Shown piece after piece: positions 16,294 through 60,897 of a stretch of 64,000 nt of DNA. The DNA is taken from the NCBI GenBank assembly GCA_951406725.2, contig OX597833.1, forward strand, positions 73,098,001-73,162,000, read 5' to 3'. Position 1 is the first letter of the stretch; each line of letters starts with the position of its first letter. The translations under genes and the position numbers were made by a program. Source of the stretch: Octopus vulgaris (Eukaryota). The notes beneath the pieces were generated by a model that saw nothing but the letters and a program-made list of their open reading frames with translations, had not been told where the DNA came from and searched no databases.

Positions 16294-16330
<37 letters not shown>

Positions 16331-16532: not shown

Positions 16533-16571
<39 letters not shown>

Positions 16572-16652
16572 CACTTGCTAATATCAAGCAGTGAGAATGT
16601 GTGCTCACAACCATATTAGTAGATAATCCAAAAATATAAAAAAAGAAAAATG

Positions 16653-16693
<41 letters not shown>

Positions 16694-21013: not shown

Positions 21014-21050
<37 letters not shown>

Positions 21051-24000: not shown

Positions 24001-24118
24001 TGAAAGGATGAAAGGCAAAATTAACCCCAGCGGAAATTGAACTCAGAACAAAGCAGCTGACAAAATATGGCTAAGCATTTCACTTGGTGTGCTAACGATT
24101 CTGTCAGCTTGCTACCTC

Positions 24119-24151
<33 letters not shown>

Positions 24152-27100: not shown

Positions 27101-27935
27101 ACCATGACCTCTTTTCGATTGAGAATGACAGACTCCAACCAGTTAAAACGATCATCTTTCACACCCATTGCAGAGAGTTTTGCCATAAGCCTTTTGTGTG
27201 GCACAGAATTAAAAGCTTTAGCAAAGTCAAAGTAAGCAACATCCACCCATGGCCTGAGTGGTGTCTTCAAGAAACTCGATAAGTTGATCACAGCAGCTGG
27301 AGTTTGGAATAAATCCAAATTGCAATGGCCAGATAAAGCTGTGAGAATTCCAAGAGATCCAAAATGTTTCACTGCCACAGGATTCCATCAGTTTGGCAAT
27401 GCAGCTAGTAAGACTGACCAGACGATAGTTTACAGGCGATATGAGATCACTGTTTTTGAACAGAGGAATGACACTGGCAGTTTTCCACTGCTCCGGAGTA
27501 GCACCATTAAGACAGAACTGAAAGAAGAGTGAAAGCTGGTGCAGAAGAAAGTAGCCACCAGGTTTGAGAAGCAGGTATGCAACACCATCAAGACCAGGAG
27601 AGGCAGAGTAGCATGTATTCCTAAGGTGATGTCACAGGATTTGGTGTCAGAGGCGGTAGAGACTGTACATTTTGGTTTTCAACGGTAAAAATGCCTGCAT
27701 AGCATTCAGCAATGAGTTCTGCACATTCTTTGGGATCATCAGTAATCTAGCCTTTGTGGGGATTGTGAAGGGGACCAACTGGAGAGTATGCGTGTGTGTG
27801 TGTCTATTCAGTTGTAAAGTTGCATAAGTGAGTGAAAAAGCTGACAGTTTCATGCAAACAAACAAAATTTTGATGAGTGCAGTGTATGGAACCCTCAGCC
27901 CTTGAGTTACTTATGTAACTTTACAGCCAAGTAAG

Positions 27936-27975
<40 letters not shown>

Positions 27976-30219: not shown

Positions 30220-30266
<47 letters not shown>

Positions 30267-30327
30267 TTTAAATATTTGTTGTGCAAGATTTATTGGCTAA
30301 ACTGGCAATATGACCATTCCGAAATAT

Positions 30328-30362
<35 letters not shown>

Positions 30363-30668
30363 ACCCTCTCTTTATAAATGTTCTGAAATGTTTCACAGCC
30401 TTGGATTTTTATCTCATTCTGTTAAATTTTTTTAATTATACGTTTGCCAGATAAGACTGGAGCCTGGTGCAGCCTCCTGGCTTCCCAGATCCCCGGTCGA
30501 ACCGTCCAACCCATGGTAGCATGGAGAACGGACGTTAAACGATGATGATGATGATATATATCATTTGCATAATCATCGAACCTGGAGCTTAACTCTGGTC
30601 TGTCCATAGCACTTACTCAGCATTACCTGACACCTTTGGGTCTCAATGACACCATTACCTCTCATAAG

Positions 30669-30723
<55 letters not shown>

Positions 30724-33700: not shown

Positions 33701-34012
33701 CCAATTCTGTCCTTCACTTACCATATGGATGGCTGCTTCCCAAACTCTCCCTTCTACATCTGCAGACATATTCTCTGCTCAAAACTGTTATTTAATTGCA
33801 GTTTCTGTTTCAAAAGATTTTCACCACAACCTCTTTCTCTCCCCCTACTCCCTCCATCTCTCTCTCTCTCCCTCTCTTCCCCTTCTCCCTCCATCTCTCT
33901 CTCCCCCTTCTCCCTCCATCTCTCTCTCCCTCTCTCCCCTACCCCAACTTTGGTTCTCACTCTTTCATTCACTCAATTTCTGTCTTTTAATCTCTCTCTT
34001 TCTTTTACCTAT

Positions 34013-34064
<52 letters not shown>

Positions 34065-40000: not shown

Positions 40001-43000
40001 TGTACACAATCCTTATATTAAGATGTGTGAAACATTTGGCACATCACATACACACACACACACTGCTTTCATATTCCATCATCTCAAAAGAAATGCTTTC
40101 CATCCTACAAAACTTACGCTTGTATTCAGTTCTGGAAGTTATTAGCTGGAATTTGGTACAAAAGAATCCAAATACAATGGAACTTTGGCTTACAAATCCT
40201 TTTCATCATAAATGAATCAGTTTATGAACAATTTTACAAACCTAAATATACATTTCAAGTAATGAATATATGCAAGATGACAACAAGCTGGGGGTGTCAG
40301 TCGCTTTCATTCAGGGCATAGCCCTGCTCAAATTCACCATGCTTTCTCTTGAATTTCCTTTGGGTAAAATAATTTCAGCTTATGAACATTTGGGTGGAAA
40401 ACAGCCTTCAGGAAAGAATCAAATTCATAAACCAAGGTTCCACTTTACCTGGTCTTCACTTTCACAACAGTTTGCCAGTTATTAGTAATTTCCAACATTT
40501 CCTAACAATGTGCTAGGAATTGTGAGAAAGGTTTGTGCTGAATTTAATTGGCGATGGTATGTGATGGTATTTATTTAAACGATCTTGGTTGGAATTGAAT
40601 GTGAAGGGACATAACTGAGTATTGTAAAATATTTTATCCCAAATTATTCTGGTTGTCACTGACCGTCCTGAATGGAATGCACCATCATCATAAGGTCTCC
40701 ATGCTGGTGGCATGCTTGAGATGATTTGATAGGAGATGACCAGGTTTCATTTCGTCCGTTTGAACATAATCTCTACAGCCGGATGCCCTTCCTAACGCCA
40801 GCCACGTTACCTGTGTGCTGGGTGCCTTTAACATGGCACCTGCTTGGGTGCTTTTACACAGGTCTGGCACAGGCACTTTTACCTGGCGCTAGCAAAGGTG
40901 CTTTTATGTTCACCAGCCCCCATATGCCCACAAGACAAGAACACACAGAGGACATGCCTGTATATATGGTGGACGGCCATAATTTTACTTGGTTGGACAT
41001 ATATTCTCAAGCACAGCAAACCACCAGAAGACTTAGTCCCTTGTCATCCTCTCTCTATATCTGAAGCACCTTTCTCACCATTTTGTCCCATTCTTCTTGG
41101 ATCTACCCTTTCCACACATTCCTCGTACAATCAGAAATCAGCACTTCTTGGTGCAAATGTACTCATCCATAAGCATCTCATGACCATTCCAGTGCAGTCT
41201 CCTTTCTGGCACACAACATCTGATGCCTCTTATACTTCACGGTTCTCTCAGCTCATTTACAATCTGTTGTACGTGTACACTGACATTACCCATCCAGTGG
41301 AGCATGCTGGCTTCATTCTTTTAGGCCTTCCCATGTTTTACTGCCATGTAGCATAGCTAGTCACACACTGGCTTCATACAATCTGGAGGAGGGGAGATAA
41401 GTGAAGAAGAGATGGGGGTGTATGAAATGTGTAATTTTCTTTTGAGAAATGTTTTCTTTTCTCCTTTACTTCGACCATCCGTAATGCTTTTGCATGATTA
41501 CTTGAAAAGAAAGGCAAAGTGTTGAAGATGTGAGAAACAGTTGGTAATGCAAAGAGGGAGTGTCGTGTATGAAGTCTGCAAAATTGTGCATAAAGTGCAT
41601 TTATAAAGTGCATTAAGTAATCATCTGATTCCAGTTTGCTTCCATTTTCAATGATTAGCGGATGAGTGACTCTCTTCTTTCATACAGACACTACACAGGT
41701 TACGCTTTCAGGGTTTTGGGATAAAGTTTTCAGAAATAACCCAATAAGTTTACCATTAATTCTGTATAATATCCACGGGTCCCACTAGTCTTATAATAAT
41801 TCTTTCTAATTTTGGCAGAAACTCAGCAGTTTTAGGGGTGGGTATAAGTCAGTTGAATCGACCCCGAAAAGAATGAAAGACAAAGTCTAGCTTTGCAGAA
41901 TTTGAACTTAAACCATAATGAATTGGAGGAAATGCCGCTGGGCGTTTGGTCCAACATGCTAACAATTCTGCCCAATATAAAGATTTGGAAATAGGGGTCC
42001 CCAGACAACAAACATGTGATGTCAAGACAGGGAAATATGAGCAGGCACAAGTCTTCTTTCAGTTTCTGTCTACCAAATCTACTCACAAGGCTATGGTCTG
42101 TCTGGGGCTATAGTAGAGGACCCTTGCTTATGGTGTCATGCAGTGGGACTGAGCCCTTAACCAAATGATTAGGAAGCAAGCTTCTTGCCGCATGGCCACA
42201 CTTGCACCCATCATTATTCTTTATTCTTATATTGCTGCTGCTGCTCTGTCTCTTGAAATCTCTCTCTTCTTTCACTGACTCCAGAATTATTTTCTCTCCT
42301 TTCCATCTTCAGGTCAGCTACTATTTCCCATTGAAGACCCTATGGCGTTCCTTTTTCTGCGCCTTGGCTGCCGCCTTTGTCCTTCGTTCGCTGAATCCAT
42401 TTGGCAATGACCATCTTGTCATGTTCTACATAGACTACAATGAACCATGGTACCTTCAGGAGCTCATACCATTTATACTTCTTGGAGCATTTGGTGTGAG
42501 TTGATTTCTCTTTTTCCCTCTGTGAAATTTCTTCAGTTTTCTTCCTCCCCCTCCTATCACCTGTATTCCCCCTTCCTTCTCTATTCTATCTCCTCTTCCT
42601 CCTCCCTTCTTTCTCTCTTATCTTCTCTATTCTCTGCCTCTGTCTTCCCCTCTCAGACCCTCCTCCTACACTCATCTCTCGCTTCTATTTCCAGGGATTG
42701 TATGGCAGCTTCTTTATAAAGTTCAATATTATGTGGTGCAGATATCGCAAAACTTCCAACCTGGGCAAATATCCAATTGTTGAGGTAAGTCGTAACTTGA
42801 CCAATCCAAATCCCTACCTGATCACTCGATCTGCTTTAAAATAAGGACACATTGGACAGTGTAATCCTTGATAAACATAGATATAGGTTGAGCGTGATTG
42901 GAGTGCCTTTTATGCCATATTTCTGCTCCATCAGGAATGTCCTGGGGTTCAGCATCAAAGCCAAATGAGGAAACTCTATTTGAGGATTCAGCTTGCTAGA

Positions 43001-46000
43001 AATAACAGTCAAATCTCACTGAAAACTCGCCTTATCTTAAAGGATGAAAAGAAGGGATGGAATGGCTTCAGCTGGAACCGTTTTTATCCCGTTGCCATGA
43101 CATTCTATGACTGTTGTAAATGAGTGTCATCCAAACAACGACCTTCACTTTTTACAGTCTTCTGTGAAAACGTGTCTGGCCACGGGGTGGGGATTAGTAT
43201 CAGCTTGCTTGGAAACACCTGAAGTTTCATGTTAAGAAGGGTATCTGGTTGCAGAAAACCTGCTTCACCCAATTCTGACGGATCCATGCTAACGTGGGGA
43301 AGTGGTGGATGTTAAAACAGTAATGATGATCTATCAATCCAAGTTGCGTACAGTGGGACTGAACCCCCAACCACACTGTCACGCCTGTCTCTTGTACCAT
43401 CAGTTTGCACCCCCACCCACCCTCTGCACCCAAACATGTATCGATCCTCCACTCAACCATTTTATCTTTGTTTTCTTGCAGGTTTTGGTTGTTACATTCA
43501 TTACGGCTCTTCTCAGTTTCCCAAATCAGTATACAAGGTATGTAGCAGCACACATTTTCAGCTATTAATGCATTAATGAATTACATTCTTGTGAAAAATA
43601 ATGCTGTTGGTTCCAGGTTTTTAATGAACCAATCTGGTTCACTGTATTTCTGACAGTGAGAGGGATGGGTAGGGGCCATTGCCACTCATTAGGTAATTCT
43701 GGGCCTTGAGTGCTAAAACACAGCAAACAGTGGGTGTTGACTAGATTCTCCACAGCTTAAACAAAATTTCTTAAGCCAAAAGAGAAGTCTCTGACAGAAA
43801 AGAGGAGAAGGGGGTACAAGTAGGAGAACAGGGTACAAGTCTCTTACAGAAAAGAGGAGAACAGGGTACAAGTAGGGCAGGAGAAGTGAGTCAGCCATGG
43901 GATGCTATGAAGCAGTAAGAGACAAAAGAAATTCACTCACTCTTTGCAAATGCACAAACACTGCACTTTGGTGCAAATTTTACTAAAGCTTTGAATAAAT
44001 TAAATTACATTTGACTCAAGATATAATGTAATCCAAATAAAGTGGTACAGGAAAACAAAACAAGGTATGAAATAAACTTGTATGCACATGCACGTTCCTT
44101 CCCTCAGGAACTGGCTTATGTTTCTTGCACATACCATCATCATTTACCATCCATGCTTCATGCTGGCATGGGTGGAATGGTTTGACCGGATCCGATGGGC
44201 CTAAGGATTGCATTGTGCTCCAGTGTTTGCTTTAGTATGGTTTCTGTGGTTGGATGTCCTTCCTAATGCCAACCATTTTACAGTGTTTCTGTTTTTCTTT
44301 CACGCCACCAGCACTAATGAGGCCCCCGCTTGGTTTGCAAAGACTACAAACCCTGAGGGGGGAAGCTTTGTATGAAAAGATGAGGGGTAAAATTATGATA
44401 GAAGGGACCAGACCAGAACAGGTTTCTTGCTGTCGAGGTGCTACATGACTTCTTATATTTAAGAAGGTTGGGAGTGAAGGTCTGAAGTGGGTGGGGATGA
44501 ATGGGGCAGAGGGCAGAAAGTGAGTGAAGAGTAGATGACTGGCAGTGTGGAGCAGCAGAAGAGTAATGATGAAGCAGTAGACAGGAGAAGGATGAGAGAA
44601 CAGAGATGATGTTGGGTAGGGAAGGGAGAAGCAAATGTATGAAGAAGGTAAGAGATAGGTGGTGGTGGTGGTGGTGGCTCAGTTGTGGAGGTGAAGATGA
44701 GGAGACAAGCTTCTTCTTGGAGAACTGTGAAATGTCAATGGACATCAGAACAAAGAGCTCTTGTTCTTTGTGTTCTGAGTTCAGATCCCATCAAAATCAA
44801 CTTTGCTTTTCATCCTTTCAGACTTGATAAGCTCACATACCAGCCACGTATTGGGGTCAATGTAATCAACTGGTCTCTGCTCAGAATTGCTGATCTTGTA
44901 TCCAATTCAGAAACAGTTATTTTAATATATACACTTGAAACTGTTTTAGATAAAAAAAAAAAGTCTATATAACTGTGTCACACAAATGGCACCTGTGCCG
45001 GTGTTATGTAAAAGCACCAATTACACTCTCAGAGTGGTTGGCATTAGGAAAGGCATCCAGCTGTTGAAACCATTCCAAATCAGACTGGAGCCTGGTGCAG
45101 CCTTCCAGCTTGCCAGCCCTGGTCAAACTGTCCAACCTATGTCAGCATGAACAATGGACGTTAAATGATGATGATGATGATGATAAGATTGATATTGTAA
45201 CATGAGAGCTAACATTCAAATTCCACTGAGGTTAACTTTGCCTTTCATCCTTTCGGGGTTGATAAATTAAGTACCAGTTGCGGACTGGGGTCAATCTAAT
45301 TGACTGGCCCCCTACCCCAAAATGTTAGGAATAACTCTAATTGTAATTTGGTTCCTCAGAGAAAATTTCTTAAAGAAACTTGTGAGAATCCAGCCACATT
45401 CTGAGGACATTGCCTGTTTCTTTGAATCCACTGTCATTGGTGTTTGGCTTGGACGCTTGCTTCCTAACCACATGGTCTCCGGTTCAATCTCATTGCCTGT
45501 TTCTTTGAATCCACTGTCATTGGTGTTTGGCTTGGACGCTTGCTTCCTAACCACATGGACTCCGGTTCAATCTCATTGCCTGTTTCTTTGAATCCACTGT
45601 CATTGGTGTTTGGCTTGGACGCTTGCTTCCTAACCACATGGTCTCCGGTTCAATCTCATTGCCTGTTTCTTTGAATCCACTGTCATTGGTGTTTGGCTTG
45701 GACGCTTGCTTCCTAACCACATGGTCTCCGGTTCAATCTCATTGCCTGTTTCTTTGAATCCACTGTCATTGGTGTTTGGCTTGGACGCTTGCTTCCTAAC
45801 CACATGGTCTCCGGTTCAATCTCATTGCCTGTTTCTTTGAATCCACTGTCATTGGTGTTTGGCTTGGACACTTGCTTCCTAACCACATGGTCTCCGGTTC
45901 AATCTCATTGCATGCTTTATTTAATAAGTATTTATTCTTGTTTCTATTTAGAATGAATTCCAGTGAATTGATCCGTCTTCTCGTTAACCGCTGTGGACCA

Positions 46001-46773
46001 GAAGGAACTCGAGAATTATGGTAAGTTTGTTTTATTTTTACTTCTATGTTATTTATACTTTTTATTTTTAATTTCTGTAAAATTAAGTCATTTTTAGTAT
46101 TTTCCTGTCATTTATTTTATAAGCAGAAATCTCATTGGTTACAGTTTTTCCAATTGTCCAGTCACTGGCTTGTTGCATTTCTGATAGTATGAGTGTGAAG
46201 GGAGTACCTATGCAACATGGGCAGAATTAATAGCACAAGGTATTTATCATCTGGATTAACAATGGCAGCATAAACATCATTAATCTAATCTGTTTGTTTA
46301 TCTCGTTGCAGTGACTATAACCGTAGTATAACAAATGTGAACATCTTTGGAGGAAGTGCCGTCGCTGGTGACGGGGTCATCCGGGCAGTTTGGCAGTTAT
46401 GCTTGGCGCTACTCTTTAAATCTATCATCACTATCTTCACTTTTGGCCTTAAAGTGAGTGAAATGATTACACATCCTGCTCTCTCTCTCTCATCGTAACT
46501 GAATGCATGATCTATTTCAGTAAGGTGTGTGTGTGTCTACTTGGTGCAGTTCATTATATTTGAGCGCATATGCACTAGGACTGTGTGTGTGCTTGCAGTG
46601 TATATGTGTACATTTTGGTTGTGTGCATGTGTATGTATGTACATAGTGTGTTTGTGTTGTAAAATACAATGGTGTTGATAGTGTGTGTGTATGCAGAACA
46701 TTGGAGGACCCTGCTTGCATCCAGGTGGCACTCATTTACAACTGTCAAATGATGTCAAGGCAAGGAGACTATT

Positions 46774-46814
<41 letters not shown>

Positions 46815-49800
46815 TGCTTATCTTCCTACACCTCAGTCGAACCGTCCAACCCATGCCAGCATGGAAAATGGACGTTAAACGATGACGATGATCATCCTCA
46901 TCCTCATTATTTCCATCATTGAATGTCTGTTTTCCCAGCTGTCATGGCTTGGATAGTTTGACAGGGTCCAATGAGCCACACACATGGAGAGAGGCAGTTT
47001 GTATGTTTGAGCTATGTGATATGTGTGTGTAGAATTGTATGTTCTCAATAATGTGTGTTTGTGTTGTATTAATGTTTATTGAACATCTGAACGTCCAAGC
47101 AATGATGAAGTGGATGTCTACACACAGGACACATCTACACCAATGGTGTGTGTGTGTGTGTGTGTGGTTCATGATGCTATTTATTAAACACTTTTGCACA
47201 TTATTTCTCAAACTTCCCTTTAGTCAATGACTGCAGTGTTTGAATTGTTTTCTTTTTCCAGGTGCCATGTGGTCTGTTTATTCCTAGTATGGTTGTTGGT
47301 GCCATTCTTGGCCGTATAGTTGGTATTGGCACTGAACAGTTAGTTGTGTAAGTTATTTCTCTCTACTTTGTTTCCCTTATTTTAATAGTAAATTCAGGAA
47401 GGAAGTGATGGCACTCATGACCTTTAAAAGAGGTTTTCCCATCCTCATAATCATCCTTTAATATCCGTTTTCCATGCTGGCTTTGCTTGAAGGGTTTAAC
47501 CAGAGCTGACAAGCTGTGGAGCTACACCAGGTTCTAGTTACCTCATGCAGGTGGAATTGATGTGGCTCATGTTCAGCTTGACATCTGGAAGTCTGTGACT
47601 GTGGGGAAAACATAGCCATATTTTCAGATGGCAAAGTGTGATCTTGGGAGATTTGGCTGCTATTTCTTGGGTATTATCTACCATTACATGATTTAATGTT
47701 AACGCCAAATCTCCATGGTGTACGATGGAGAGTTGGGCGTTATATCTAGCAGGTTGAATGACTTCATGGAGGTTCCCTTGTCAGATTGTCATCACCTTGT
47801 GTGTGTGTGTATGTATGTTTTAATATGACAAGGGCCATGCAGTGGGAATCTGATGTTTGCTTTGAATTCCTGTTTCATTTTCCCATTTTGTCACCTTGAT
47901 TGCATTGAGATAAGTATTGATCTTTGACTCTTTTTCCCTTTTCAAACTTTTTAAAAAGCTTCCTTAGAGGGACACTGCTCATGAACCTATCCAAAATCTC
48001 CACTCAGAAGAAAGTGGGGCCTGACTTGAATCCTGCAACTGACTCAACTTCACTACAGGCATCCAAGGGTCAGGTGTTGGGGCTAAACTGGGTGATAGAT
48101 TTAGTTCATCATCTGTCATCTAACAACAGAAACTGTCCCTCTGACAGACTTCCATATAGATTCTGTCTGCTAAATTTAACTCAGAGGGCTTTTGTTACAA
48201 GAAACATGTTCAAAATGGCATGCACTGAAATTGAACCTCAGAAACACATAGTTGTAAAGCTCACTTCTTAACCTCATAGTCTGACCTGTGCACTGTCCAC
48301 TCTTTACTGCATAGTTCTGACCATTATGCTAATTAATGAAATAAATAGATCTTCCCTTTCTCAGTAAAATGGTTTATCGGTGTGTCTGAGAAGTTAGGTG
48401 GGCAATTAAACTCTTTGCATATACAGTTGGCGATGTGGGTTCGAATTCCACTTGGTCTGCCTTCTTTTCTCCATTCCTTGAACTCATAATTTCTAGTTAG
48501 TAAAGCTCAGCTGTTTTCCAGTTGGCCTAAACTGAATTGCTGCTAACCGTTTACACAAGGACAATACCTTCAATCAGTGACCCGACCTCCCACTGATCTC
48601 TTATGAGCCACTCAACAGTTTCATCTTATAAAGCAGTGTAATGCTTGACTACAACGGAACCTTCTGACTTTCTTCCACTCATTGACCACCCTCTCTCTCT
48701 CTCTCTCTCTTCCATAAACCTGCTTAAACAGGTCTGACCAGAGCTACACAATATCTATCTTAACTTAATAATCTGATCGCTAAGGATTTTATCACAGGTT
48801 TTTGGTAAATCTTTCTCTTCATTCCCATTTCCCCCACAAACGAAACCTACCTGGTCAGTAGTGACACACACACACATCATTTTATAAAAATCCTTCACCA
48901 ACTTCATACTCTTTGTAGAGGAAGTGAAATTTAGAAGGTTACTGGAATACTAAGTAAGATGGTTTGGGTTAAATTGGTCAGAATTTGCTTCTTATTATTT
49001 CTCTACACAATATTTCAAGACCTTTTTTTTTTTATCTTTATTTTACAGGGCAAATAGGGATTCCTGGTTTTTTTCCAATATGTGTACATCTCAGGAGATG
49101 TGTACAGTTACTCCAGGTCTGTATGCCATGGTTGGAGCTGCTGCAGCACTTGGAGGGGTGACAAGGATGACAGGTAAGGGAAATAAAGTTGCTTCATCAA
49201 TTCTCACACACAACAAATACCATCTTCCTATTCGAGCAGAAAATAGAAACTTTAATTCTTTGTCACTGTACATTCAGAAGAAAGTGAAATTATGCTAAAT
49301 ACAACTAAATTGAAAACCATTTTTCCCTGGCTATATCAACAATTCTTGAAACTTTTAGGCGTGAATTTTACATACGTAGAAGCTTTTTTTTAACAAATTT
49401 TATCCTGAAAATCACCTGCCTAAATTACATAGGTGCACAAATTACATGGGTTTTTACAGTAATATGATATATTGTCTCCATGAAGCATAAATTTACTTCA
49501 CTTCCACTAATAAAAAATATTTCCCACTTTGCAAGATGATTCTCTCCCTTGCAATAGAAACAACCAACCAATAACACTGGTCAACGAAATGAAACTTTTT
49601 TTAATGATCAGAGTTTCCGACTGACTTTTCTGGGTTAATTTTTGATGTTGATTACGAATCTGAAGTCTGATTTTCTCTATCAGGTCACATTTTCATGTTA
49701 ATGATACCTGCTGTTTTAACTCATAGGATACGTAAAGTATGTCTATATAAAGTATACTGAATACAAGATACGATAATTTCATGGCTTTTTATTGTACAAA

Positions 49801-52446
49801 ATTTAAATTATTGTGTACAAATAAGTTAGAATACACTCAAATGCATAACAACTTAAAATCTTTGGGATTTGGACTTTCTATGGTGTTTTGTCTCAGGTTC
49901 ATCCCTATATAACATCCAACAGTAGTCAGCTAACATTCCTGCATTCCAAAATCCTTGATATTGTTGTTCCATCGATGCAATATCTTGACGAATGCGTTCC
50001 CCCTTGCTCATCAGACACTACTCCAAAGTTCTCTGCAAAAAAGTCCAGATGTGAATCAAGGAAATGGTCTTTTAGTGACATCCAACAGCCCATTGCAGTA
50101 TAGGAGTCTAGAAGACACTTCACTCCATTTCTGAACTCTAGAGATCTCTTGTTGCCTAGGAAATTTTCACAGAGCCATTTGAAGGATTCCCAGGCTTTAA
50201 GCTCAATCTCATCCAGTGCTGTGAGGAAGTGGTTGTCCTTCAGGAGTTGACCAGTGTAATTGAACATCTTAAGATACAACAAAAATTTGAACTGAACAAC
50301 TGTAACTGTTGTTCATTAATGTATGACATTGGTTGTGAGTTAACTTCTTGCTGAGACCTGTATGAAGAAAAATGTTGATAGAAACTTCATAAGAAATGGC
50401 AACACTTCAGTGTCTTCCACTTATGGCAGCTTCCCTGAGAGACACCCTTTGATACAACTGCAACGGTTATTTTCATAAATTGGAACTGTTTTAGTCTAAA
50501 ATAAATTGTTCTTAAGGCAGGATGGCATGGTCATGGCTAGAATGTCTTTAGTCATTCTTCTGTTCACTCGGAGCCAATGGTGGCTCGTAGATAAAATTAG
50601 TTGGGGTGCTGCTTCAGAAAATTTTTAGTGTTTTTTTAATATTGTGTAAAAGGAAACAAATATATAAAAAGAAAATTTATACATAAATTTGATCAGTTCA
50701 TGTTTCTGCCACTGCCAGGTGGTGTTTAATTTGTTCACTGAACACAGGCACAAATTCCCCCTTGTTTTTAAAAAATCACCCCTAAATCACAAAATAAGGG
50801 GGAAAATCTGGCAGCTACACTGAAGCTGGAAGCAGGATAACAATCTAATTCTACACTGTATCACATTCAAGACTATAAACACGTTTTTAAGCACAACACA
50901 TGTAGAATCAAAAGGAAACCCTACCTTTCACCAACACACCAGGGTCAACACTGCATGAAGCACAGTGCTCTCTCTCTCTCCCTAGCATGCAGCTTTCTAT
51001 CTTGGACATATGAGCATGTGCACAACTGCCAAACACTGCATCACTGGAACTGTGAAGCACACAGTTCTATACAAGGATTTTTGTATTTATTTTCATGAAC
51101 TCGGGAATGGCTACTGGCATTAAGCTTCAGGATTAAATAATGTCAAAGTATAGAGAAAGCATTAAAAAGGATTCATTATATTGAACGTTATTGATAATAT
51201 CGAGTGGAAATAGGGGGTGCCGCAGTACCTGTACACATGCCACCACTGCTTAGAGCTAAGCAACATTGACAACAGTTCCACTCATGATATTACTTTTGTT
51301 CTGCAGTTTTGTTTATCACAGCCATGGTCATACTGGAGCACTGCCTGCTGTTAGCATTTCGTTTTATATATTTTTTCCTGTACCTTTAATTTTAAAAATT
51401 ATTTGAAAAAATGTTTTTTATTAAATTCTATTTTCAGTGTCTTTGGTTGTGATAATGTTTGAGTTGACAGGTGGGCTGCAGTACATCGTACCTATGATGC
51501 TTGCTGTAATGACAAGTAAATGGGTCGGAGATGCTCTTGGCAAGGAAGGAATGTATCCTTTTTCTCAAGTCTGAAATTAAGAGTTTTATGTGTTTAATTT
51601 TTCCATTTAGTTGCAGGAAGATGAAGGGTGAAGATGGGTCTTGTGGGAATCACCTCACACTGTTGAGATCAATTCAGTATTTATTTTGAATTGTGGTTGT
51701 GAGGGAAGCCTCTGAAGGTTGGCCATATTGTTTTACTGCATAGATTTGTTGCATTGGGGAGTGCAGAACCGAAGAGTGGAGATGTTAAGAAGGGGCACGG
51801 ACAGGTGTATTGGGCAGCTTACAAGAGTAGGATGGGGGTCGGGGGTTATGCATGGCTTGTGTGTTCACGTGTATCTGTGTATGTTATCGATCGTGTTGTG
51901 AGAGTTTCTCATTCCTTCTTTAAATGTTCTTTATGCACAAAAGTATGCATATCTCACTCTAGTATGAGATTGCACCAGCATGGCCATGTGGATAGGGCAT
52001 ATACAAACTATTGGAATGAAATGTCTGTCAAAAGACCAGCGAGTCACATGGACTGAAGTGAGACATTACTGCAGTGTTTGGGATCAGCTCTTTAAATGAC
52101 TTTCAGGGCCCAAAAGTTATTTCAAGATACCAGACTAGGAAAGAGTAATCATAGGCACAGCAAGGGGTCGGACTCTGTAAGGAGCAGACAGCCACCATGT
52201 ATGGGTGTGTGTGTGCATGTGTGCGCACTGACGTTTACTGATCTGATCCATGCAAGCATGGAAAAGCATTAAAACGAAGATAATATTTACACACGATGTG
52301 TGGCTAAGAAGTTCATTCCCCAGTGTCATATGATTTTGGGTTCATTCTCACTGGGTAGCACCTTAGTTAAGTGCCTGCTGCTACAGTCCCAGATTGATCA
52401 AAACCTCGTGAGAGCATTTGGGGATGGAAATTGAAAAAAAGGCTAT

Positions 52447-52482
<36 letters not shown>

Positions 52483-55399
52483 CACACACATATATACATA
52501 CATAAACAGGGGTTGAACAAAATAATGGAAACACCTTAAATTTTCAAACAAATTAATTTTAATACTGGGTAGGACCACTTTTGGCCATAATTACAGCTTG
52601 ATTTCTTCAAGGTATGGACTCGTATCATAAATGTTCAGTAATATTGAGATCTGGGGTCTGTGGTGGCCAGATAAGATGTTCAACTTCATTAGAATGTTCC
52701 TCGTGCAATTAAGTAACGACTTTAGCTGTGTGCATTGGTGCATTCTCATCCTGAAAGATTGCATTTCCCTCCGGAAACAGTTCCGCAACCATAGGATGAA
52801 TTTGATCAGATAAAATGCTTAAATAGCCTTGACTCTGCCATGAAAGGAAACCATTGGGCCAGCGGATTTCCAAGATATAGCCTCCCCCACCCTTGCCTCA
52901 GATCATCACAGATCCTCCTCCATGTTTAACAGTTGGAAGAAGGCAGTCTGTGTTAAATGCTTATTTTGGCTGTCTCCACACATATACTCGGCCAGTAGTC
53001 GGAAATAAGATAAAGGATGACTCGTCCAAGAAAATAACATTGGTCCACTGCTCTAGGGACCAATTCTGTAAGTTTTTACTCCACTCTAAACACTTTGCAA
53101 CGTTTGTTTTTGAAAGTAGTTGTTTTCTGATTGCAGCCCTTCCATGAAATCTGGCTTTGTGCAGCTCCTGGCAAAGAGCTTTTGTGGAAACTGGGTTCTC
53201 GAGGTGGTCATTAAGCTCTGCAGTTATTTTGGGGGCTGTACTTTTGTGATCCTTTCTAACAATTCGCATAAGAGTCTGACGGTCCCTATCTGAAAGTTTT
53301 GATTTTCTTCCGAAGTTTTGTTTTGTTGAGAAGGTTTTTCCCTCTTTCTCAAAGGCTGTCATTACTTTCGAGACAGTACTTCGGGATACACCAAACATTT
53401 CAGCTGTTTTCGTTATGCTAGCACCTGCCATACGAGCACCAACAATTTGACAACTTTGAAAGTCTGATAGATCTGTCATTTTAATGAACTTGAATTATCT
53501 TTTTCTGATGATATCTGAAAAGAAACAGCAATTTTAGCAAAACATATTAAGCAACACTAATAATAAATCAAAAACATAAAAATAAACAAGCTTTTGATGG
53601 TTTTATAGATATTTCAAAATTATGATGCTAAGTGTTTCCATTATTTTGTCCACCCAACTGTATACCTCTTACTTTCTTTTACTTGTTCCAGTCATTTGAC
53701 TGCAGCCATGCTGGAGCACCGCCTTTAGTTGAGCATATCAACCCCAGAACTTATTCTTTGTAAGCCTAGTACTTATTCTATCAGTCTCTTTTGCCAAACC
53801 ACTAAGTTACGGGGACGTAAACACACCAGCATCGGTTGTCAAGCGATGTTGGGGAGACAAACATTGACACACAAACATATACACACACACATACATACAT
53901 ATATTTATATATACATACGACAGGCTTCTTGGTCGGCCCGAGGCTATAGTAGAAGACACTTTGCCGAAGGTGCCACGCAGTGGGATTGAACCTGGAACCA
54001 TGTGGTTGGTAAGGAAGCTACTTACCACACAGCCACTCCACTCCGACGTATGTATATATATATATATATATCACTCGAAAAGAAACTCCAACCTTGTCCA
54101 ACCTTCACATTTCATTCACAATCCTGAAAGGAAACTCTCTAAAGAATGGAGCTGTGCAGTATGAAATCACTAAAGTCTGGTCAGAGAGGGACCAATGGTT
54201 TCACATCCATGAAGCCACAGCCTTGTGGACAGCTCATAAGACAAATTGAACTCATCAGCTCTTGGAGGTACAGAAACGCTGTCAATTTGTCATCAGAGAA
54301 AAAAAAAAACGTTAGTGGACATAGGTTGTCTCCCCTTGACCAGCGATTCATTGGATGTGATGGAGAGTGGAATTCGTTTTTGTCTAATTTGATGAGTTGG
54401 CCACAAGGCTGGTCACTCTATGACTAGACTTTAACTTTACTGATTTAATACTCACACACAGGCGTAAATATTGGGCTTTATATGTGTGTGTGTGTTTGTA
54501 ACTCCTTTGTCTTGACATCATGTGATAGTTGCAAATGGCCATCACCACCATAAAAACTATGATTTGGAAACATTTATAGTTATATGTCTACACAAACACA
54601 CAGACTAGGGAGCAGCCCCAGACTCACCTCTGTTTATTGTCTAAAATATGCGTGTGTAATTATATATAATCATCATTATTTCCCATCCATTTTCCATGCT
54701 GACATCGGCAGGTTGGTTCCACAGAAAGAGGCAAATCAGAAGACACCAGCAAACTCTGTCCTCTGCTTTGACCTGGGTTTTCTGGTTGGATGACCTTCCT
54801 AATGCCAACTGTTTTCCAGTGTGTGGACTGGGTGCTGAGGTCAGCAGGGAATTTGCAGGACAAAGAGGCCATCTACTGGAGTGTGGGGTGAGTATTGAGA
54901 GGCAGAAAGGTGTCTTCCATTAGAAGACAGACATGGTTTCCTCAGAGAGAGCAAGAGGAAAGATGATGTAAGCAAGTGTCGGGTGCAGGGGTCATACACC
55001 CAAGCTGCAGGGTGAGGCATATAGTAGGGGGAACCAGGAATTTTGAAAGGTGAGTGGAAACTAGAGATGGGGGGGGGATTTAACAGGGACATAGTGTGTG
55101 CAGGTAGATAAGTAGGTGGATAGGTGATGGGGAATGAAAGAGAGGGAGGGGGGAAAAAGTAGTGGTGAGCATGGGTGGGTTGTGGGAGATGGAATGGGTC
55201 GGGTATATGGCTTCTACTTTGCTGGGTGGGTCTTCTGAAGCGCAGCATATCTTCAGTTGTCTCAAACCATTGAATTATGAAACTCCTTGACATTACTCCT
55301 CAGCTATGATGCCCATATACGACTGAATGGTTACCCTTATTTAGACAGCAAGGAAGAATTCACCCACACAACAATGGCAGCAGATGTGATGCGGCCTCG
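5314..55399 (+). CDS. CLCN3: ClC-3/4/5-like H+/Cl- exchange transporter, spliced CDS span (15 exons, 3'-incomplete)
   Basis: Exons join in consistent phase with GT-AG boundaries. The protein has [29 protein letters not shown] (gating Glu), GGVLFSLEE (proton Glu), GLFIP, GIY (central Tyr) and DVMRPR (start of CBS1). The symbol denotes the ClC-3/4/5 subfamily, not strict 1:1 orthology. Confidence 0.96.
9903..10308 (+). mobile_element. 5'-truncated RTE LINE (second family) with (TGA)n tail and 11-bp TSD
   Basis: [20 protein letters not shown]...[11 protein letters not shown]...AMMDREVWR; tggggtcagtt at 9892-9902 and 10309-10319. A diverged minus-strand relative lies at about 38385-38830. Confidence 0.9.
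10820..11240 (+). mobile_element. Degenerate Penelope-like element, GIY-YIG endonuclease region
   Basis: Frameshifted fragments [49 protein letters not shown] and NRKNELF follow the order of the PLE endonuclease pattern CPLxGxC / HxxSF / LSxYIW / IKW / CxLCLxEK / LNxRxE. Confidence 0.65.
15964..16182 (+). CDS. CLCN3: CLC exon 2
   Basis: ttccag|GG...GCCG|gtcagt; [29 protein letters not shown]...DAWSGW; phase 1 to 1. Confidence 0.96.
17318..17975 (-). mobile_element. RTE 3' UTR fragment with internally expanded tandem subrepeats
   Basis: Reverse complement of 3020-3465, with a (CAT)n tail and repeated tgccactggcac and cactcgaatggtg units. Confidence 0.85.
22423..22494. repeat. (GGT)n microsatellite, representative of many (TA)n, (CA)n, (CT)n, (CAT)n and (TAA)n tracts in the window
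   Basis: Seen directly; other examples are (CT)n 5898-5965 and (TA)n 30223-30264, 30672-30719 and 61063-61102. Confidence 0.95.
23903..24345 (-). mobile_element. Two tandem copies of tRNA-derived SINE family B
   Basis: Minus strand shows A-box-like and B-box (gagttcaa) motifs, a core ttcatcctttcggggtcgataaa..aagtaccagt and a (TTA)n tail; other copies at about 873-1040, 21925-22095, 41795-41975, 44770-44915 and 45213-45320. Confidence 0.85.
24740..27700 (-). mobile_element. CR1-like LINE ORF2 remnant, split by a pogo insertion
   Basis: Minus strand: [36 protein letters not shown] (26860-27378), then [19 protein letters not shown] and [14 protein letters not shown] (24943-25419). Confidence 0.9.
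25521..26794 (-). mobile_element. Internally deleted pogo-like DNA transposon
   Basis: Imperfect TIRs (ctgcaaaaacctatgtaatttacacc / ggtgtgcaaatttcatgggtttttatga) with flanking TA; minus-strand remnant SFTAKEKL...[16 protein letters not shown] resembles a pogo N-terminal DNA-binding domain; a second copy of one end lies at about 49282-49461. Confidence 0.75.
28785..30222 (+). mobile_element. Near full-length decayed mariner transposon
   Basis: TIRs ttgggtcatctcacaaataatgcg / tgcattatttatgggatgattcaa in TA context; transposase pseudogene about 28968-29997 with [22 protein letters not shown] and [14 protein letters not shown] motifs, carrying stops and frameshifts. Confidence 0.93.
30721..30920 (-). 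mobile_element. Short non-autonomous repeat between (TA)n tracts carrying a degenerate hammerhead-like motif
   Basis: Minus strand gtttCTGACAA-A-GAGC-tct-GCTC-GAACCGTTaaat at about 30818-30852. Confidence 0.5.
31815..32210 (-). mobile_element. Full-length tRNA-derived SINE family A
   Basis: Minus-strand head gtggctgtgtggtaagtagcttgc...ggttcagtcccactg (A/B boxes), central gccttgtaagtggatttggtagacggaaactgaaagaagccc, 3' ctccagcatggccacagtcaaatgactgaaac; other copies at about 34818-35118, 42050-42200, 53675-54040, 60270-60385, 16690-16810 and 52300-52440. Confidence 0.88.
32236..33260 (-). mobile_element. Old, deleted RTE LINE copy
   Basis: Reverse-complement similarity to 2083-3465 (tail motif, and ACVxTAMLHGS and LPLLVT regions); a similar copy lies at about 40683-41360. 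Confidence 0.75.
35270..35841 (-). mobile_element. Three tandem SINE family B copies directly upstream of exon 3
   Basis: Three repeats of caactggtacttattt...gaaagg...gtcaacc. Confidence 0.85.
35871..36019 (+). CDS. CLCN3: CLC exon 3
   Basis: ttgcag|GT...CAG|gtcagt; [34 protein letters not shown]; phase 1 to 0. Confidence 0.96.
36643..36807 (+). CDS. CLCN3: CLC exon 4
   Basis: ttctag|TGG...GAG|gtaagt; ends [12 protein letters not shown]. Confidence 0.96.
37723..37929 (+). CDS. CLCN3: CLC exon 5
   Basis: ttgcag|ATA...GAG|gtaagg; [15 protein letters not shown]...[12 protein letters not shown]...NEAKKRE. Confidence 0.97.
39560..39640 (+). CDS. CLCN3: CLC exon 6
   Basis: atgaag|GTC...GAG|gtaagg; [27 protein letters not shown]. 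Confidence 0.97.
42313..42495 (+). CDS. CLCN3: CLC exon 7
   Basis: cttcag|GTC...GGT|gtgagt; [15 protein letters not shown]...[12 protein letters not shown]. Confidence 0.97.
42695..42784 (+). CDS. CLCN3: CLC exon 8
   Basis: ttccag|GGA...GAG|gtaagt; [30 protein letters not shown]. Confidence 0.95.
43482..43537 (+). CDS. CLCN3: CLC exon 9
   Basis: ttgcag|GTT...AG|gtatgt; [19 protein letters not shown]; phase 0 to 2. Confidence 0.94.
45408..45911 (+). repeat. Minisatellite: 6 near-identical copies of an 83-bp unit
   Basis: Units start at 45408, 45491, 45574, 45657, 45740 and 45823; only two substitutions seen. Confidence 0.97.
45952..46020 (+). CDS. CLCN3: CLC exon 10
   Basis: atttag|A...TG|gtaagt; [23 protein letters not shown]; phase 2 to 2. 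Confidence 0.93.
46312..46453 (+). CDS. CLCN3: CLC exon 11
   Basis: ttgcag|T...AAA|gtgagt; DYNRS...[23 protein letters not shown]. Confidence 0.95.
47262..47347 (+). CDS. CLCN3: CLC exon 12
   Basis: ttccag|GTG...GT|gtaagt; [27 protein letters not shown]. Confidence 0.96.
49049..49173 (+). CDS. CLCN3: CLC exon 13
   Basis: ttacag|G...G|gtaagg; [23 protein letters not shown]; phase 2 to 1. Confidence 0.96.
49575..50256 (-). mobile_element. Chapaev3-like (CMC) DNA transposon, internally deleted
   Basis: 11-bp TIRs cactggtcaac / gttgaccagtg with taa on both flanks; minus-strand [16 protein letters not shown]...[27 protein letters not shown]. Confidence 0.8.
51438..51552 (+). CDS. CLCN3: CLC exon 14
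   Basis: tttcag|TG...AT|gtatcctttt; [39 protein letters not shown]. Confidence 0.96.
51553..55303 (+). other. U12-type (minor spliceosome) GT-AG intron
   Basis: 5' splice site GTATCCTTT; branch site TCCTTGAC at 55284-55291, with the branch A 13 nt before the intron end; no real polypyrimidine tract. Confidence 0.92.
52507..53660 (-). mobile_element. Tc1-family transposon (decayed), inside the U12 intron
   Basis: TIRs cagggggttgaacaaaataatggaaacac-like at both ends; ORF 52961-53479 [19 protein letters not shown]...[12 protein letters not shown], and a downstream [10 protein letters not shown] motif. Confidence 0.92.
55304..55399 (+). CDS. CLCN3: CLC exon 15
   Basis: cctcag|C...CG|gtaagt; [32 protein letters not shown]; phase 2 to 2. 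Confidence 0.96.
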
Positions 55400-57779
55400 G
55401 TAAGTACTTAAAAAAATGCAGCAGCCCTCAATCACCAATAAAACATTTCTGTTTGCTAAAGTCGTTAAGCTGCAAATTGCTGATGTATCTAATGAGAGAA
55501 GTTTGAGTGAATATCACTGGAATTTGTCAAATTTCTGTGAAAGAATGTTTTTTTCTTTTTTTTTTTTCTTTAGGTGGTGTGGTTTCTCATCTGAACCATT
55601 TCCTCATCCAATAAATATTTCTGGTTTCATTTTTGCCATTAATATACCTATATAAACAGAATTTGAGACTCTCCCCCCCTCTTTCTCCTTGCTCTGTTTC
55701 TGTCTTCCTCTTTCTCTCAAACATTCCCCCATCCCTATTTGTTCCTACATTACAGAATCTTATTCTATAGTAAAGGTGATATCTTTAATCAAGATGGTAT
55801 TTGGACCTCACTATTTTAGTCACTAACACAGATGCTGTAATTCACTCATAATAATTGGTGCTAATTCTCAACTAAGAATTCCTGTTTTCCTAAACTTACT
55901 GTTGAGGTTTTTGCTTGCTCTGATAGCAAAACTTTTGCATGCCTTGTCACTCCTGCTTCATATAAAAACCATTTTCTCTGTGTGGAGATGGGTGACAGTT
56001 ACTCAATTTTACATACAGTGTTTTCTTACCCTGTGGTCTAGGTTGTACATTCATCTAGTTTACAGTTTGGAATCAAAAATATGATTGAAGGTTAAATTTC
56101 TTTGCATGGAGACATGATAAAAAGATTTCTTTCTTATTCAAGATTACAACCATGTTCAGTCAAATTCTGGAGTTCTTCTGTCAGACATAAACAACAGTGT
56201 CCACAGAAGCCGTTCTCTGCTACGTTCCAGGCGGCAGCTCTTGATTTTATCACTTTGATCTATGGTTGCTGCCACTCCACTATTTTTTTTTGTTAAGAAA
56301 TCAGATATATTTTGAAAGGAATTTTAATTTTCACTTATTTTTGAACTTAAGGAATCTTAGCCTTAAAGATGTTTTGAGTTAACCTATCAGGTTCGATGTT
56401 TTTACTGTACAGTCTTCCAATTCTACATCTTCTGTTTATGCTATTATTTTGACAGACATTTCCTATTCAAAGACCCCATTGAGCTGTCTCTGAAATTGTA
56501 TTTGGTTTTGGTTGGTTGTTCCATGTTTATAGACTTTTGGCTTTAGAGATTCGTAATTCTGTGTCACCCACACAGCTTCTGTTGATAATTAGGAAGACTT
56601 TTGTTGTAGATCTTCTGACACCCGCATAAAGTAAGAAAGTGCAGAGTGATTAAAATGAGCAAAGACCATGCTGGTTAGTTTTGTGGCTATTTTCAAACTC
56701 TTTTGGGAACTAAACCAGAAAATATTTCCATTTAATGCTGGGCCTTGCTTTTATTTACTTTCAACATTTCGGTTATGAATTAAAACCACACATCTAGCAA
56801 TGGGTCTGTTAGGGCAGTTTTGTTGAATATTTTCTATTTGATCATTGGTTAAATATGAACCAACTAACATTTCCTGTGATGTGCTGTATAATCATGGGTG
56901 TGTGTGTGTGTGTTCTCCATTGACCTGACCATAAAGTTGGTATTTGTTGATGTTTAGGTTGAGTTTTGGAAATTTCCTATCTTCAAGTTACAAGAATGAA
57001 GATAAGTTTCTATGTTAACTTAATACATTCTTCATCATAATCGTACATTCTTCTGCACATATTTCTTTAAGGAAAATATGTTCTGTAAAAGTATTTCTTC
57101 AGTCAGATTACATCAACTCACCAGAGATTGTATAACAAACAAGCAAAAATTCCTGCCTTAAATCACTTGACAGAAACATTGTACAGAATCCAACAGGTGT
57201 AGGGATCAAAAAATTTCATTAAATACCTTAAAAGGTGAAAGTTTCTTATCATCATGTAGGTGTGTCTGTTGTAATGGATGAAGACAAATCTAAAATATCA
57301 GATGTCAAAACTAATAATGATCTGTTATTTTTATTTGACCACACCTAGGTAATTAAAACATTGACTTTCACATAAGCTGTGGTAAATATAGTTGAACATA
57401 CATAGAACTGATGGAAATTAAGACAGAATAAGCTTCATCAATCCATGTTTGATGGTGCAATCTGATAGGAAGAGATTTCTGAGAAGTTAGAGTTTAGGGC
57501 AGCCCATAGGCTGGAAATTTTGATATGGAATTTGCTTAGTTAACGCTTTGCTGATGTCTTGAGCAACAACATTGCATTCATGGAACTTGTTTCAGTCATT
57601 GGACTGTGGCCATGCTGGGGCATCTCCTCTAAGAGTTTTATTGAACAAATCAGCCCCATTACTTTAAGTCTGGCATTTATTCTATCAGTCTATTTTGCTG
57701 AACTTCTATCTGACCCATGCAAGTATGGAAGAGCAAATGTTAAAGAAAGGATTAAAAAAAATGATTTAATTAGGAAAAG

Positions 57780-59045
57780 AGGGCTTGAATTTTGAGATAA
57801 TAATACAAGGAATGTGTCGTTAGTGAAGTGAAAGTTGGTAACAAGTTCACTGTGGAATTTAGAGTATCCTCAAGAGTTTATCGAGACTTGGTTCTTAGCT
57901 CACCTCTTATCGTTGTTCTCTAAGCCATAATCAGAAAGTCTCAGACCAACTTCCATGGAAATTTCTGTGTATGGATGAGCTGAGTTTTATAACTGAAAAT
58001 GTGGAAGGTTTAGAAAAGCAATTCCAAATGTGGGAAGAAGGGTCAGGACAGCAAAGGGCCCTCAGGGTTAACTGAGCAACAAAGTAAAAATTTTAATTTC
58101 TAGTAAGAAAGACAGAATCAAGGAAATGGCCCTGTTTGATGTGCTGAAAGACTAGAAAAGAATTCTATTTGGTGTCCATGTACCCAATTTAAAATAGAAA
58201 TGTGCAAGAGATGCAGTGGGATGCATGTGAGAGGCAGATTGGCAGAATAGAAATGAGCAAAAGTTGTTAGCAATAAAAGCACCACTGAAAACTCCAAAGA
58301 AGCAGTTGACAATTTCTGTTACAAAGCTGACTTCACCCTTCTGATGTCATATTCCTCCTGGAATACACTTTGTTTGTCTGAATTAATTTTGAAAATAATT
58401 AAGAGCTTGGTAAAATTTCATCCATTAGTAATCTGGTGAGTGGAACATGAAATGTTAATGAATGGTTTTAATTAAGTTTAATTTGAAACAGGAAATCCGA
58501 ATCACAGAACTGTCAGTCGCAGGTATTTTGGTATCAAAGGAGTTAATTAGCTGTGGGGAGGAGTGGGGCACTCCATAAACAGAGCTATGAGAATAAGGAC
58601 AAGGTGGATAAAGTTTAAGGGGCTATTACGTAGACCAGCAACACTTGAATTCTGTTTGAGAGAGGAGGAAAGGTAGATTGTATGAAGTGTGATGATGCCT
58701 GATGTAGAGGCAGGAAAGAAATGAGGAGAAGCTTCAATACACTGAATGTGTAATGTTAATGTGCACGGAGGAGATTGAGGTGAGTTGAAAGAAAGAGTAG
58801 ATGTAAAAGGAATCGGATTTAGAACAGGTGTGTAGTGATTATGGATGATTACAGGTAGCAAAGTGTCAGGAGATCTAAATAGAAAGAAGATACAGCAGAG
58901 AAAGACTGGGCAAGTCATAAGCAGGGAGAAAGGTGAAAACTGATTTCATTGTGTTGAACCATATAAAAAAGACAACAAAGAATCCTACAATGCCAAGAGA
59001 CAGGAACCATCTAACCCATGCAACCATAGGAAAATGGACGTAAGA
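57780..59045 (+). mobile_element. Highly decayed RTE LINE copy
   Basis: Patchy similarity to 2083-3465 (aagggccctcagggttaact, ggaaatggccctgt, tail aacccatgcaaccataggaaaatggacgtaa). Confidence 0.65.
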
Positions 59046-60377
59046 AATTATGTGTGTGGATGTCTATGACTACACTGGTATGTATTTAGTTGTTTATATT
59101 GCATCCTTTTATATCCTGTAACTTAGTCGTTTGACAAATAGGGAAGAATGCAAATAAGAACTGGTCTGAAATAAGTACCGAGGTTGATATGGTTAACTGG
59201 CAGTACCCAAGTATGGCTGCAGTCCAATGAGTGAAACCAGTAAAAGAATGCCTGTGTGTTTGCAAAGTATGTATTTGTGTGTTTTTGAGTCTGTTTGGGT
59301 GGCCATTGGTGGAGAGGGTTTTACGGGTCCGAATGCAAGTCATACCTCAACTGCTTTTAGATTTCCTCTGTTATGACTCACAGAGGAAATGCTGGGTCTG
59401 TTCTTTAACATGCCAGTCCCCGTCTTGCTCAGTAGTTGTGAGACTTGAACAGTGTCTGGGACCCTTAGGGGTCATCTGAATGGTTTTGGGTCTAGGATTG
59501 TCAAATGGGATTTCATATCCAACCAACCATACTCAAAAACTGGGATGCTGTTTGTTATGATTCAGGTAAATCAGCTAAGATTGTTTGGTTGTGTTGCTTG
59601 CTTTTCCTCTTTGGATCCTGCATAATCATTTTCTTTTCTCTGAGGGTCCAGCTGGGTGAGGGCTTGCATTGGTCAGCCATGGGGTTATGACAGATGAAGA
59701 AGATGGGGACTGGCTGGGATGCTGCTCAGACGCTTGCCTCAGACAACCTGAGCAACAAATACTGAGAAATGGCAGATACAGTAACAGGCAGCCATGGTGC
59801 ATGCCCCTCCATACTTGGATCGTCACCTGTAAATGCTTGGATGTCTGCTTCTCTTATTATTATTCCGGCTATTTTAAAGCAAGTTTTAGCAGAGACATGC
59901 ATTTCAACATGAACAGGTACATGCATGTAACAACTCCTGTTTACAGGTGCCAAACATACAGACATCTTTCATCCATAGATACACACACACACACACACAC
60001 CATGAAATCCTTAAATGCATACCTGTACATTAACACACCAACATTGCCCTTTGTCCTATTCAGGTTAATGAGCTTTCAACTCAGTTTTTTATGCAACATT
60101 TTCCCTGCTCCCACCGTCACATCCTGGATGTTTTGTTGGATCAAAATTAGGGAGAGGATCCGTGTCAGCTTGTGAATATGTATGACATCTAAAACCATTA
60201 GTGGAACATGGTACCTGCCAATACCAAATCATTCTTGATTGCAAGTAATAGGGTGATACACACACACACAGTAGGCTTCTTTTAGTTTCCTGCTACCAAA
60301 TCCACTCACAAGGCTTTGGTCAACCCAGGGCTATAGAAAATGCTTACCCAAAATACTGTGTGGTTGAGGAGCAAGCT

Positions 60378-60419
<42 letters not shown>

Positions 60420-60873
60420 TGGATGAATTTTGTTAAAAGCTAAAAGCCTGATTGCAAAGAAGCAATAAAGACCGAAAGAGCTGCGAACATTGGACCGAAA
60501 TAATACTTGGTAATAATGTTGATAATGATTACCTCATCATCATCATCATCATCATCACCAGCAACAACAACAACAACAACTACAGTAATGAGCATGTGTG
60601 GGAGCCTCTACACATTCACCCAACCATCCAGAAATAACATTCAACTCTCCCTCAAACCAAATCCTACCATCTTGTGTATGAACTGATGTAGACAAGATGG
60701 TCACAGCTGGAAAGTCATTCATCATAGGTCTGTTCAGTCAGGGTTCACTTGGAACTAAACAGCGACTGACACCACCACCACCACCACCACCACCACTTCA
60801 TGTTTATCCATTTTAACAGTTTGTTTGTTTTTTTATTTTTATTTTTTTTTTGTTTTTGTTTTTGCCTCCCAAG

Positions 60874-60897
60874 GTACTGGCGATATGGACTGGGCGT
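60874..60897 (+). CDS. CLCN3: Candidate 24-nt alternative microexon of the CLC gene (R-YWRYGLG-V)
   Basis: About 50-nt T-rich tract, tgcctcccaag acceptor, consensus gtaagt donor, length a multiple of 3, no stop in the phase-2 frame. Confidence 0.65.

Follow-up and report, generated by a model that had tools for sequence, protein, structure and literature searches.

Why does the gene for a chloride/proton exchanger of Octopus vulgaris carry one intron of the minor (U12) type among its major-type introns, and why does that intron split the codon just ahead of the chloride-coordinating tyrosine? A preliminary description of the locus, made on a stretch of 64,000 nucleotides (contig OX597833.1, positions 73,098,001 to 73,162,000; hereafter the window, to whose first letter all coordinates refer), had proposed that expression of the exchanger depends on the minor spliceosome. 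It missed the more informative point, which is the age of the intron and its losses. The reading that we hold with considerable confidence is that this intron, whose minor-type signals are perfect, likely undergoes constitutive removal through the minor spliceosome and likely goes back to the animal ancestor.

Host gene and exon model

Octopus ClC-3/4/5 proteins were found by searching with the exon at 37723-37929, and exact blocks between these proteins and the window gave 16 exons. The 16-exon join has 636 codons and no stops, and it equals P0130 (Octopus sinensis isoform X4) at 636 of 636 amino acids. The gene, the minor intron and its two neighbouring exons are placed as follows.

5314..60897, forward strand: host gene, encoding the octopus Cl-/H+ exchanger ClC-3/4/5; the window contains 16 exons, and the CBS exons are beyond it
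51438..51552, forward strand: coding exon 5' of the minor intron; ends ...K-E-G plus the AT of the Ile codon; exact match to P0121, P0124, P0130 and P0131; corresponds to ClC-3 residues 592-628
51553..55303, forward strand: GT-AG U12-type intron, 3,751 nt, phase 2
55304..55399, forward strand: coding exon 3' of the minor intron; begins with the C of the Ile codon, then Tyr598 (ClC-3 Y630), and runs to ...VMRP

The gene has 15 complete introns in the window, the minor intron being number 14. On P0121, a Voltage_CLC domain (PF00654, E=3e-89) was found together with two CBS domains (PF00571), and the best solved match of the host protein is ClC-3, with residues 35-795 aligned at 1,173 bits. GSGIPE, GKEGP, the gate Tyr and the CBS domains are the features that the octopus protein shares with the endosomal Cl-/H+ exchangers ClC-3, -4 and -5. 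Octopus Ile597 and Tyr598 align with ClC-3 I629 and Y630, in agreement with the earlier claim that the split codon is the one just ahead of the chloride-coordinating Tyr. According to the available text of PMC10669864, exon 10 of human CLCN5 spans amino acids 512-645 including helix R, so that there is no intron at this site (PMC13088963 follows a different scheme of exon numbering). Where human CLCN5 has this single exon, the octopus gene has three introns and a microexon, and is thus the more intron-rich of the two in this region.

Splice signals of the minor intron

The U11/U12 di-snRNP pairs with a GTATCCTT donor and a TCCTTGAC branch site, and the first AG past the branch is used. The corresponding elements of the octopus intron are these.

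51553..51560, forward strand: U12-type 5' splice site GTATCCTT, 0 mismatches to the RTATCCTT consensus
55284..55291, forward strand: U12-type branch site TCCTTGAC, 0 mismatches to TCCTTRAC; likely branch A at 55290 (position -14)
55301..55303, forward strand: 3' splice site CAG, the sole AG between 55257 and 55335

At the 51552/51553 boundary the exon ends ...GAAGGAAT, coding GGC AAG GAA GGA AT, and the intron begins GTATCCTTTT. On the acceptor side, TCCTTGAC at 55284 is followed by ATTACTCCTCAG to 55303, and the exon resumes with C TAT GAT at 55304. The split codon is AT/C (a slash marks the intron position here and below), the Ile of G-I-Y, and the phase is 2. The coordinates and the two motifs of the preliminary description therefore proved exact, and its placement of the intron in phase 2 within that Ile codon is borne out by the 636/636 amino acid model. 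G-I-Y-D is read across the junction in 14 of 14 annotated proteins of the octopod cluster, these annotations being gene models.

Introns were typed by consensus mismatches and a Markov estimate. The donor octamer taken by itself was rejected as evidence, since it occurs at chance level: there are three matches in the window against 1.79 expected, and 29 of 100 shuffles reach three. Two other candidates were likewise taken as chance, namely GTATCCTT at 36631, which sits in the acceptor tract of intron 3, and ATATCCTT at 12636 with CCCTTAAC near 12828, which lacks both a suitably spaced AC and an exon. The branch site at 55284-55291 is the only TCCTTRAC on the forward strand of the whole window. 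For a donor match at a true exon end to coincide with a fully matching branch octamer at the corresponding acceptor, an order-2 Markov model gives a probability of about 1.3e-7 per intron. The combination of U12 donor and branch octamer was found in one of the 15 complete introns; the other 14 have at least four of seven mismatches to TATCCTT and at least two to the branch octamer. The earlier statement that the remaining complete introns have U2-type donors holds in so far as these donors are unlike U12, but their number is 14 and not 13 when the count takes in the alternative first exon as well as a 24-nt microexon.

The acceptor lies 12 nt after the branch octamer and 13 nt after the likely branch A; the optimum for U12-type introns is given as 11-13 nt in the available text of PMC3584512. 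With a T fraction of 0.38 and a T run of 2, the minor intron ranks lowest of the 15 in both respects. It had been described as having no pyrimidine tract, which is correct for an extended tract, but pyrimidines occupy seven of the nine nucleotides between the branch site and the CAG. The signals are canonical U12-type. With the GT-AG U12-type introns described in the available parts of PMC3584512 and PMC7367187, the octopus intron shares the RTATCCTT donor, the TCCTTRAC branch site, a short branch-to-acceptor distance and the lack of an extended pyrimidine tract, as well as a T at -1, a non-zero phase and its situation as one minor intron among major ones. It differs from them in nothing of kind; it is apparently without a human counterpart, and human-centred catalogues consequently miss it.

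Probable dependence on the minor spliceosome

Retention of the intron leads to an early stop.

51572..51574, forward strand: in-frame TGA reached on intron retention

In translation this stop comes 19 nt into the intron, so that full-length octopus ClC-3/4/5 likely needs the minor spliceosome. The retention product would break off within helix R and have neither CBS domain, and the retained mRNA would likely be removed by surveillance. Since TAT is in frame at the donor, AT/GTAT (51551-51558), as well as at the acceptor-exon, AG/CTAT (55301-55307), translation of a retained transcript still passes through the Tyr ahead of the stop; this survival of the Tyr is a coincidence.

For a congener, Octopus bimaculoides, tables S4 and S7 of PMC11347168 list genes for U11, U12, U4atac and U6atac and count 401 introns out of 114,266 as minor. 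With a minor-type share of about 0.35%, one more such intron is no surprise. No minor snRNAs were found in the window with Rfam. Our reading is that the minor spliceosome would remove the octopus ClC-3/4/5 intron constitutively, and that AT/C joining would rebuild Ile597 ahead of the gate tyrosine. The canonical signals, the snRNA genes of the congener and the early stop on retention together lend good support to the proposed dependence of the exchanger on the minor spliceosome. The accompanying suggestion that this splicing step is rate-limiting did not fare as well: nothing indicates it for octopus ClC-3/4/5, and the general claim is disputed in print. The available text of PMC3584512 reports the proposal that minor introns are rate-limiting, whereas that of PMC7367187 holds that their excision rates do not differ enough to matter.

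A regulatory role could also be imagined, in which the amount of exchanger is governed by minor splicing that is slow or regulated, and the intron is kept by selection for that effect. Such a model is in print (PMC3584512 and PMC6865273, in their available parts), and both the very long conservation of the minor intron and the early stop on retention would suit it. However, human CLCN5 and the insect-like and decapod-like sequences described below manage without the intron, and no conserved intronic element is shown besides the splice signals. In addition, the rate effect is disputed by PMC7367187, and a largely neutral evolution is argued for in the accessible text of PMC10639083. We therefore regard a regulatory role as unlikely, and prefer constitutive removal. 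Nor is there support for a functional link between chloride binding and the nearness of the intron to the Tyr. In the available text of PMC11303396, chloride density is seen near ClC-3 Y630, which is called a gate, and larger currents are reported for Y630A.

Probable age and losses of the intron

The preliminary description had proposed a comparison of intron position and type across ClC-3/4/5 orthologues, and we ran it by translated read-through. A frame called on unspliced DNA continues past the exon end into intron sequence; AT/GTATCC then gives M-Y-P after Gly, which served as a proxy for age. The donors of relatives are thus read from amino acids, such that G-M-Y-P fixes GTAYCCN only and the branch sites of relatives are outside the proxy, and the assignment to taxa uses about 31 residues in an exon that is very conserved.

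With a query bearing GMYPF, 118 of the best 120 of 164 matches were kept after two vertebrate-like frames were left out; 99 read GMYP, nine GMYL, three GMYS, three GLYP and four GIYD or GVYD. Because this query is biased, an exon-only query was added, for which 109 of the best 150 of 672 matches were kept, 41 vertebrate-like matches being left out. GMYP-type (U12-type) tails were present in 66 of these 109 and 15 ran through, the rest being 11 GR[EQ]/V, three GIY/G, two GI/V, two G-M-stop, one GMYA, six other and three without anchor; since both hit sets favour short frames, these fractions are not lineage frequencies. Past GMYP the tails are intron-like, with 8% identity to the spliced continuation (n=54) and a median of nine codons to a stop.

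U12-type tails were found after cores identical (31/31 residues) to those of Pomacea/Aplysia, Crassostrea, Mercenaria and Mytilus, and also of Lamellibrachia, Paralvinella, Glandiceps, Diadema and Hydractinia (GMYL). Others follow cores matching Nematostella/Rhopilema and Stylophora at 30/31 residues and a spider at 29/31. U12-type tails also follow cores that agree at 30/31 residues with a protein showing 98% identity, over 165 aa, to an entry from Geodia barretti; in the Geodia-cluster proteins themselves, however, the frame continues as G-I-Y-D. Run-through frames resemble insects, decapods, isopods and Ciona, and one matches Mercenaria and may be a transcript. Molluscs, annelids, chelicerates, hemichordates, echinoderms, cnidarians and probably sponges would accordingly share this donor, placed at an identical base, and vertebrates, tunicate-like and many pancrustacean lineages would have lost the intron.

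In the human U12 table, CLCN6 and CLCN7 are listed and CLCN3, CLCN4 and CLCN5 are not, as judged from a search of four supplement files of PMC6800510 (one not searchable). As the vertebrate-like matches were left out, vertebrate loss is read from papers only, the exon map being that of CLCN5. Taken together, the GMYP tails across animal cores, a human CLCN5 without the intron and a human U12 list without CLCN3/4/5 suggest, at the level of sequence comparison, that animals likely had the minor intron ancestrally and that vertebrates and many arthropods lost it. We take the minor introns of human CLCN6 and CLCN7 to lie near the 5' end (about intron 5) and not in helix R. These introns resemble that of octopus in being U12-type and in the same gene family, but they belong to another CLC clade; they are retained in RNU4ATAC patients, according to the available text of PMC6800510. 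In an insect U12 list, no CLC gene was found under the terms searched.

Two public gene models, P0047 (Tegillarca) and P0295 (Actinostola), are mis-spliced exactly at the minor-intron site, as expected if the predictor misses a minor intron. Frames P0284, P0387, P0389, P0390 and P0216 are nearly the same in their exon cores, each of which has a GMYP or a GIYD tail, and P0387 shares a 90% cluster with GIYD members. These mixed tails may reflect transcript versus genome, or presence and absence of the intron in close relatives.

Persistence of the minor type and implied shifts of intron position

A G at -1 favours U1 binding. Conversion from U12 to U2 type has been proposed to need such a G (PMC7367187, in the available text of section 14). 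In 161 of 163 long proteins (154 with Ile), the residue ahead of the Tyr is one whose codon has T in second place, which fixes the -1 base. The octopus intron may thus have stayed minor-type because its phase-2 -1 base is a T, the second letter of the conserved Ile codon, and cannot become G. In this way the Ile codon would hinder in-place conversion to U2 (an 'Ile lock'), and the link of the intron to the Tyr is likely an indirect one, via the Ile that fixes -1T. Two G-M-stop frames (P0463 and P0501; 2 of 109 exon-only frames kept from the best 150 of 672) fit an in-place U2 donor, so the lock is not absolute; these frames suggest that in-place conversion is still possible, or that contigs were cut. 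In the published pattern, loss by deletion outnumbers conversion (PMC2831892 and PMC10639083, in part).

Several frames break close to the minor-intron site. Eleven insect-like frames (P0462, P0465, P0467, P0471, P0472, P0475, P0480, P0484, P0489, P0490 and P0492) break at GR[EQ]/V, which implies a GT intron in phase 0, immediately ahead of the Gly and 5 nt upstream from where the minor intron sits; three of them continue V-S-K, as GTAAGT would. The implied intron is 5 nt downstream in the pancrustacean-like GIY/G frames P0445, P0448 and P0477, and 1 nt downstream in the fungal-like GI/V frames P0457 and P0500. The -5 site, after a Glu or Gln codon and before Gly, has the common AG/G context for insertion. 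Because of this context, and because a 5-nt slide needs matching changes at both intron ends, loss followed by gain is more likely than sliding to explain the shifted introns, whose positions could be independent gains as far as the translated frames go. Should sliding be true, it would offer a naturally replicated example of U12-to-U2 conversion coupled to a slide, and this at a functional residue. That a minor intron can be replaced via a nearby cryptic site has been proposed (PMC3291851, in part), and U12/U2 twintrons with nearby cryptic-site conversion, as in Drosophila Urp (available parts of PMC2831892 and PMC3291851), offer a route that fits the -5, +1 and +5 nt positions elsewhere; no such twintron was seen in octopus. 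A more far-reaching reading, that the G-I-Y position is older than animals, that it got away from the minor spliceosome several times by moving, and that lineages shedding minor splicing, with in-place conversion blocked by the Ile codon, either deleted the intron or put a major-type intron a few bases away, seems to us quite improbable, and we retain an intron inherited from the animal ancestor.

Major-type splicing and recent insertion as alternatives

The intron might instead, or in addition, be spliced by the major spliceosome at hybrid or cryptic sites, given its GT-AG ends, the pyrimidines at seven of nine positions ahead of the CAG and the 13 GTRAG motifs that it contains. We consider this very improbable: with -1T and TCC at +4 to +6 the donor resembles none of the 14 U2 donors, the branch site matches its octamer fully, no other intron of the 15 is as poor in T, and 14 of 14 annotated octopod proteins use the 51552/55304 junction.

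Three repeats lie inside the minor intron.

52283..52469, no strand assigned: dispersed SINE-like repeat, degenerate; three further places in the window match it at 70-77%
52507..53660, reverse strand: dead Tc1/mariner-type element, 1,154 bp; TIRs and a Tc1-type transposase N-terminus
53674..54066, reverse strand: dispersed repeat, SINE-like; aligns with 31814-32228 at 80% (421 columns), with partial copies elsewhere

The inverted arms of the Tc1-type element (52511-52534 and 53632-53655) are 24 nt long with 92% identity, and its flanks are TA on one side and AA on the other. The transposase frame (52961-53494) is open for 177 aa before stops and a frame change set in; its N-terminus matches PF01498 (E=3e-10), while the DDE part is broken and its 62-aa piece is without a Pfam match. 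We presume that the dispersed repeats at 52283-52469 and 53674-54066 are SINEs; ARAGORN and Rfam gave no tRNA-like head or RNA-family match for them. A Tc1 element and SINEs had been reported in the intron: the Tc1 element is real but broken, whereas one SINE-like copy is clear, the second is degenerate, and the label itself is presumptive. Over 700 nt separate the repeats from the donor and at least some 450 nt separate them from the acceptor, and the earlier remark that dependence on the minor spliceosome persists even though transposons were absorbed carries no weight; they would be passengers. A recent insertion, specific to cephalopods or derived from a transposon and with only chance agreement of its motifs, is hardly credible, for although the intron contains Tc1 and SINE-like repeats, is missing from human CLCN5 and has a donor octamer that by itself is at chance level, the repeats are far from both ends, the joint motif chance is about 1e-7 and the same read-through extends from sponge-like to echinoderm-like exons, so that a recent origin is contradicted.

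Significance

A literature search that covered few subscription papers found no paper on a ClC-3/4/5 minor intron or on cephalopod minor splicing. Octopus genomes are included in two published surveys, so the intron is probably a database entry already and may be listed in online minor-intron databases. The ClC-3/4/5 clade would join the ion-transport genes with an ancestral minor intron, in this case an intron overlooked in human-centred lists. The octopus intron offers a clean test case for the -1 model of phase-2 minor introns resisting conversion, and the nearby intron positions in lineages without the minor intron make sliding versus parallel gain testable with public genomes.

Other features of the locus

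The first exon of isoform X4, one of several alternative first exons, lies within the window at 5314-5416; those of isoforms X1-X3 and X5 were not found within the window. Intron 2 of the gene (16183-35870) measures 19.7 kb. The 24-nt alternative microexon at 60874-60897 has an AAG acceptor and adds YWRYGLGV (eight residues, in annotated isoforms) directly ahead of CBS1; it is present in P0121, P0124 and P0130 and missing in P0131 and in solved ClC-3. An 83-bp tandem repeat at 45408-45911 (6.1 copies, 99% match), partly built of a SINE-like head, ends about 40 nt 5' of the acceptor of the exon at 45952-46020.
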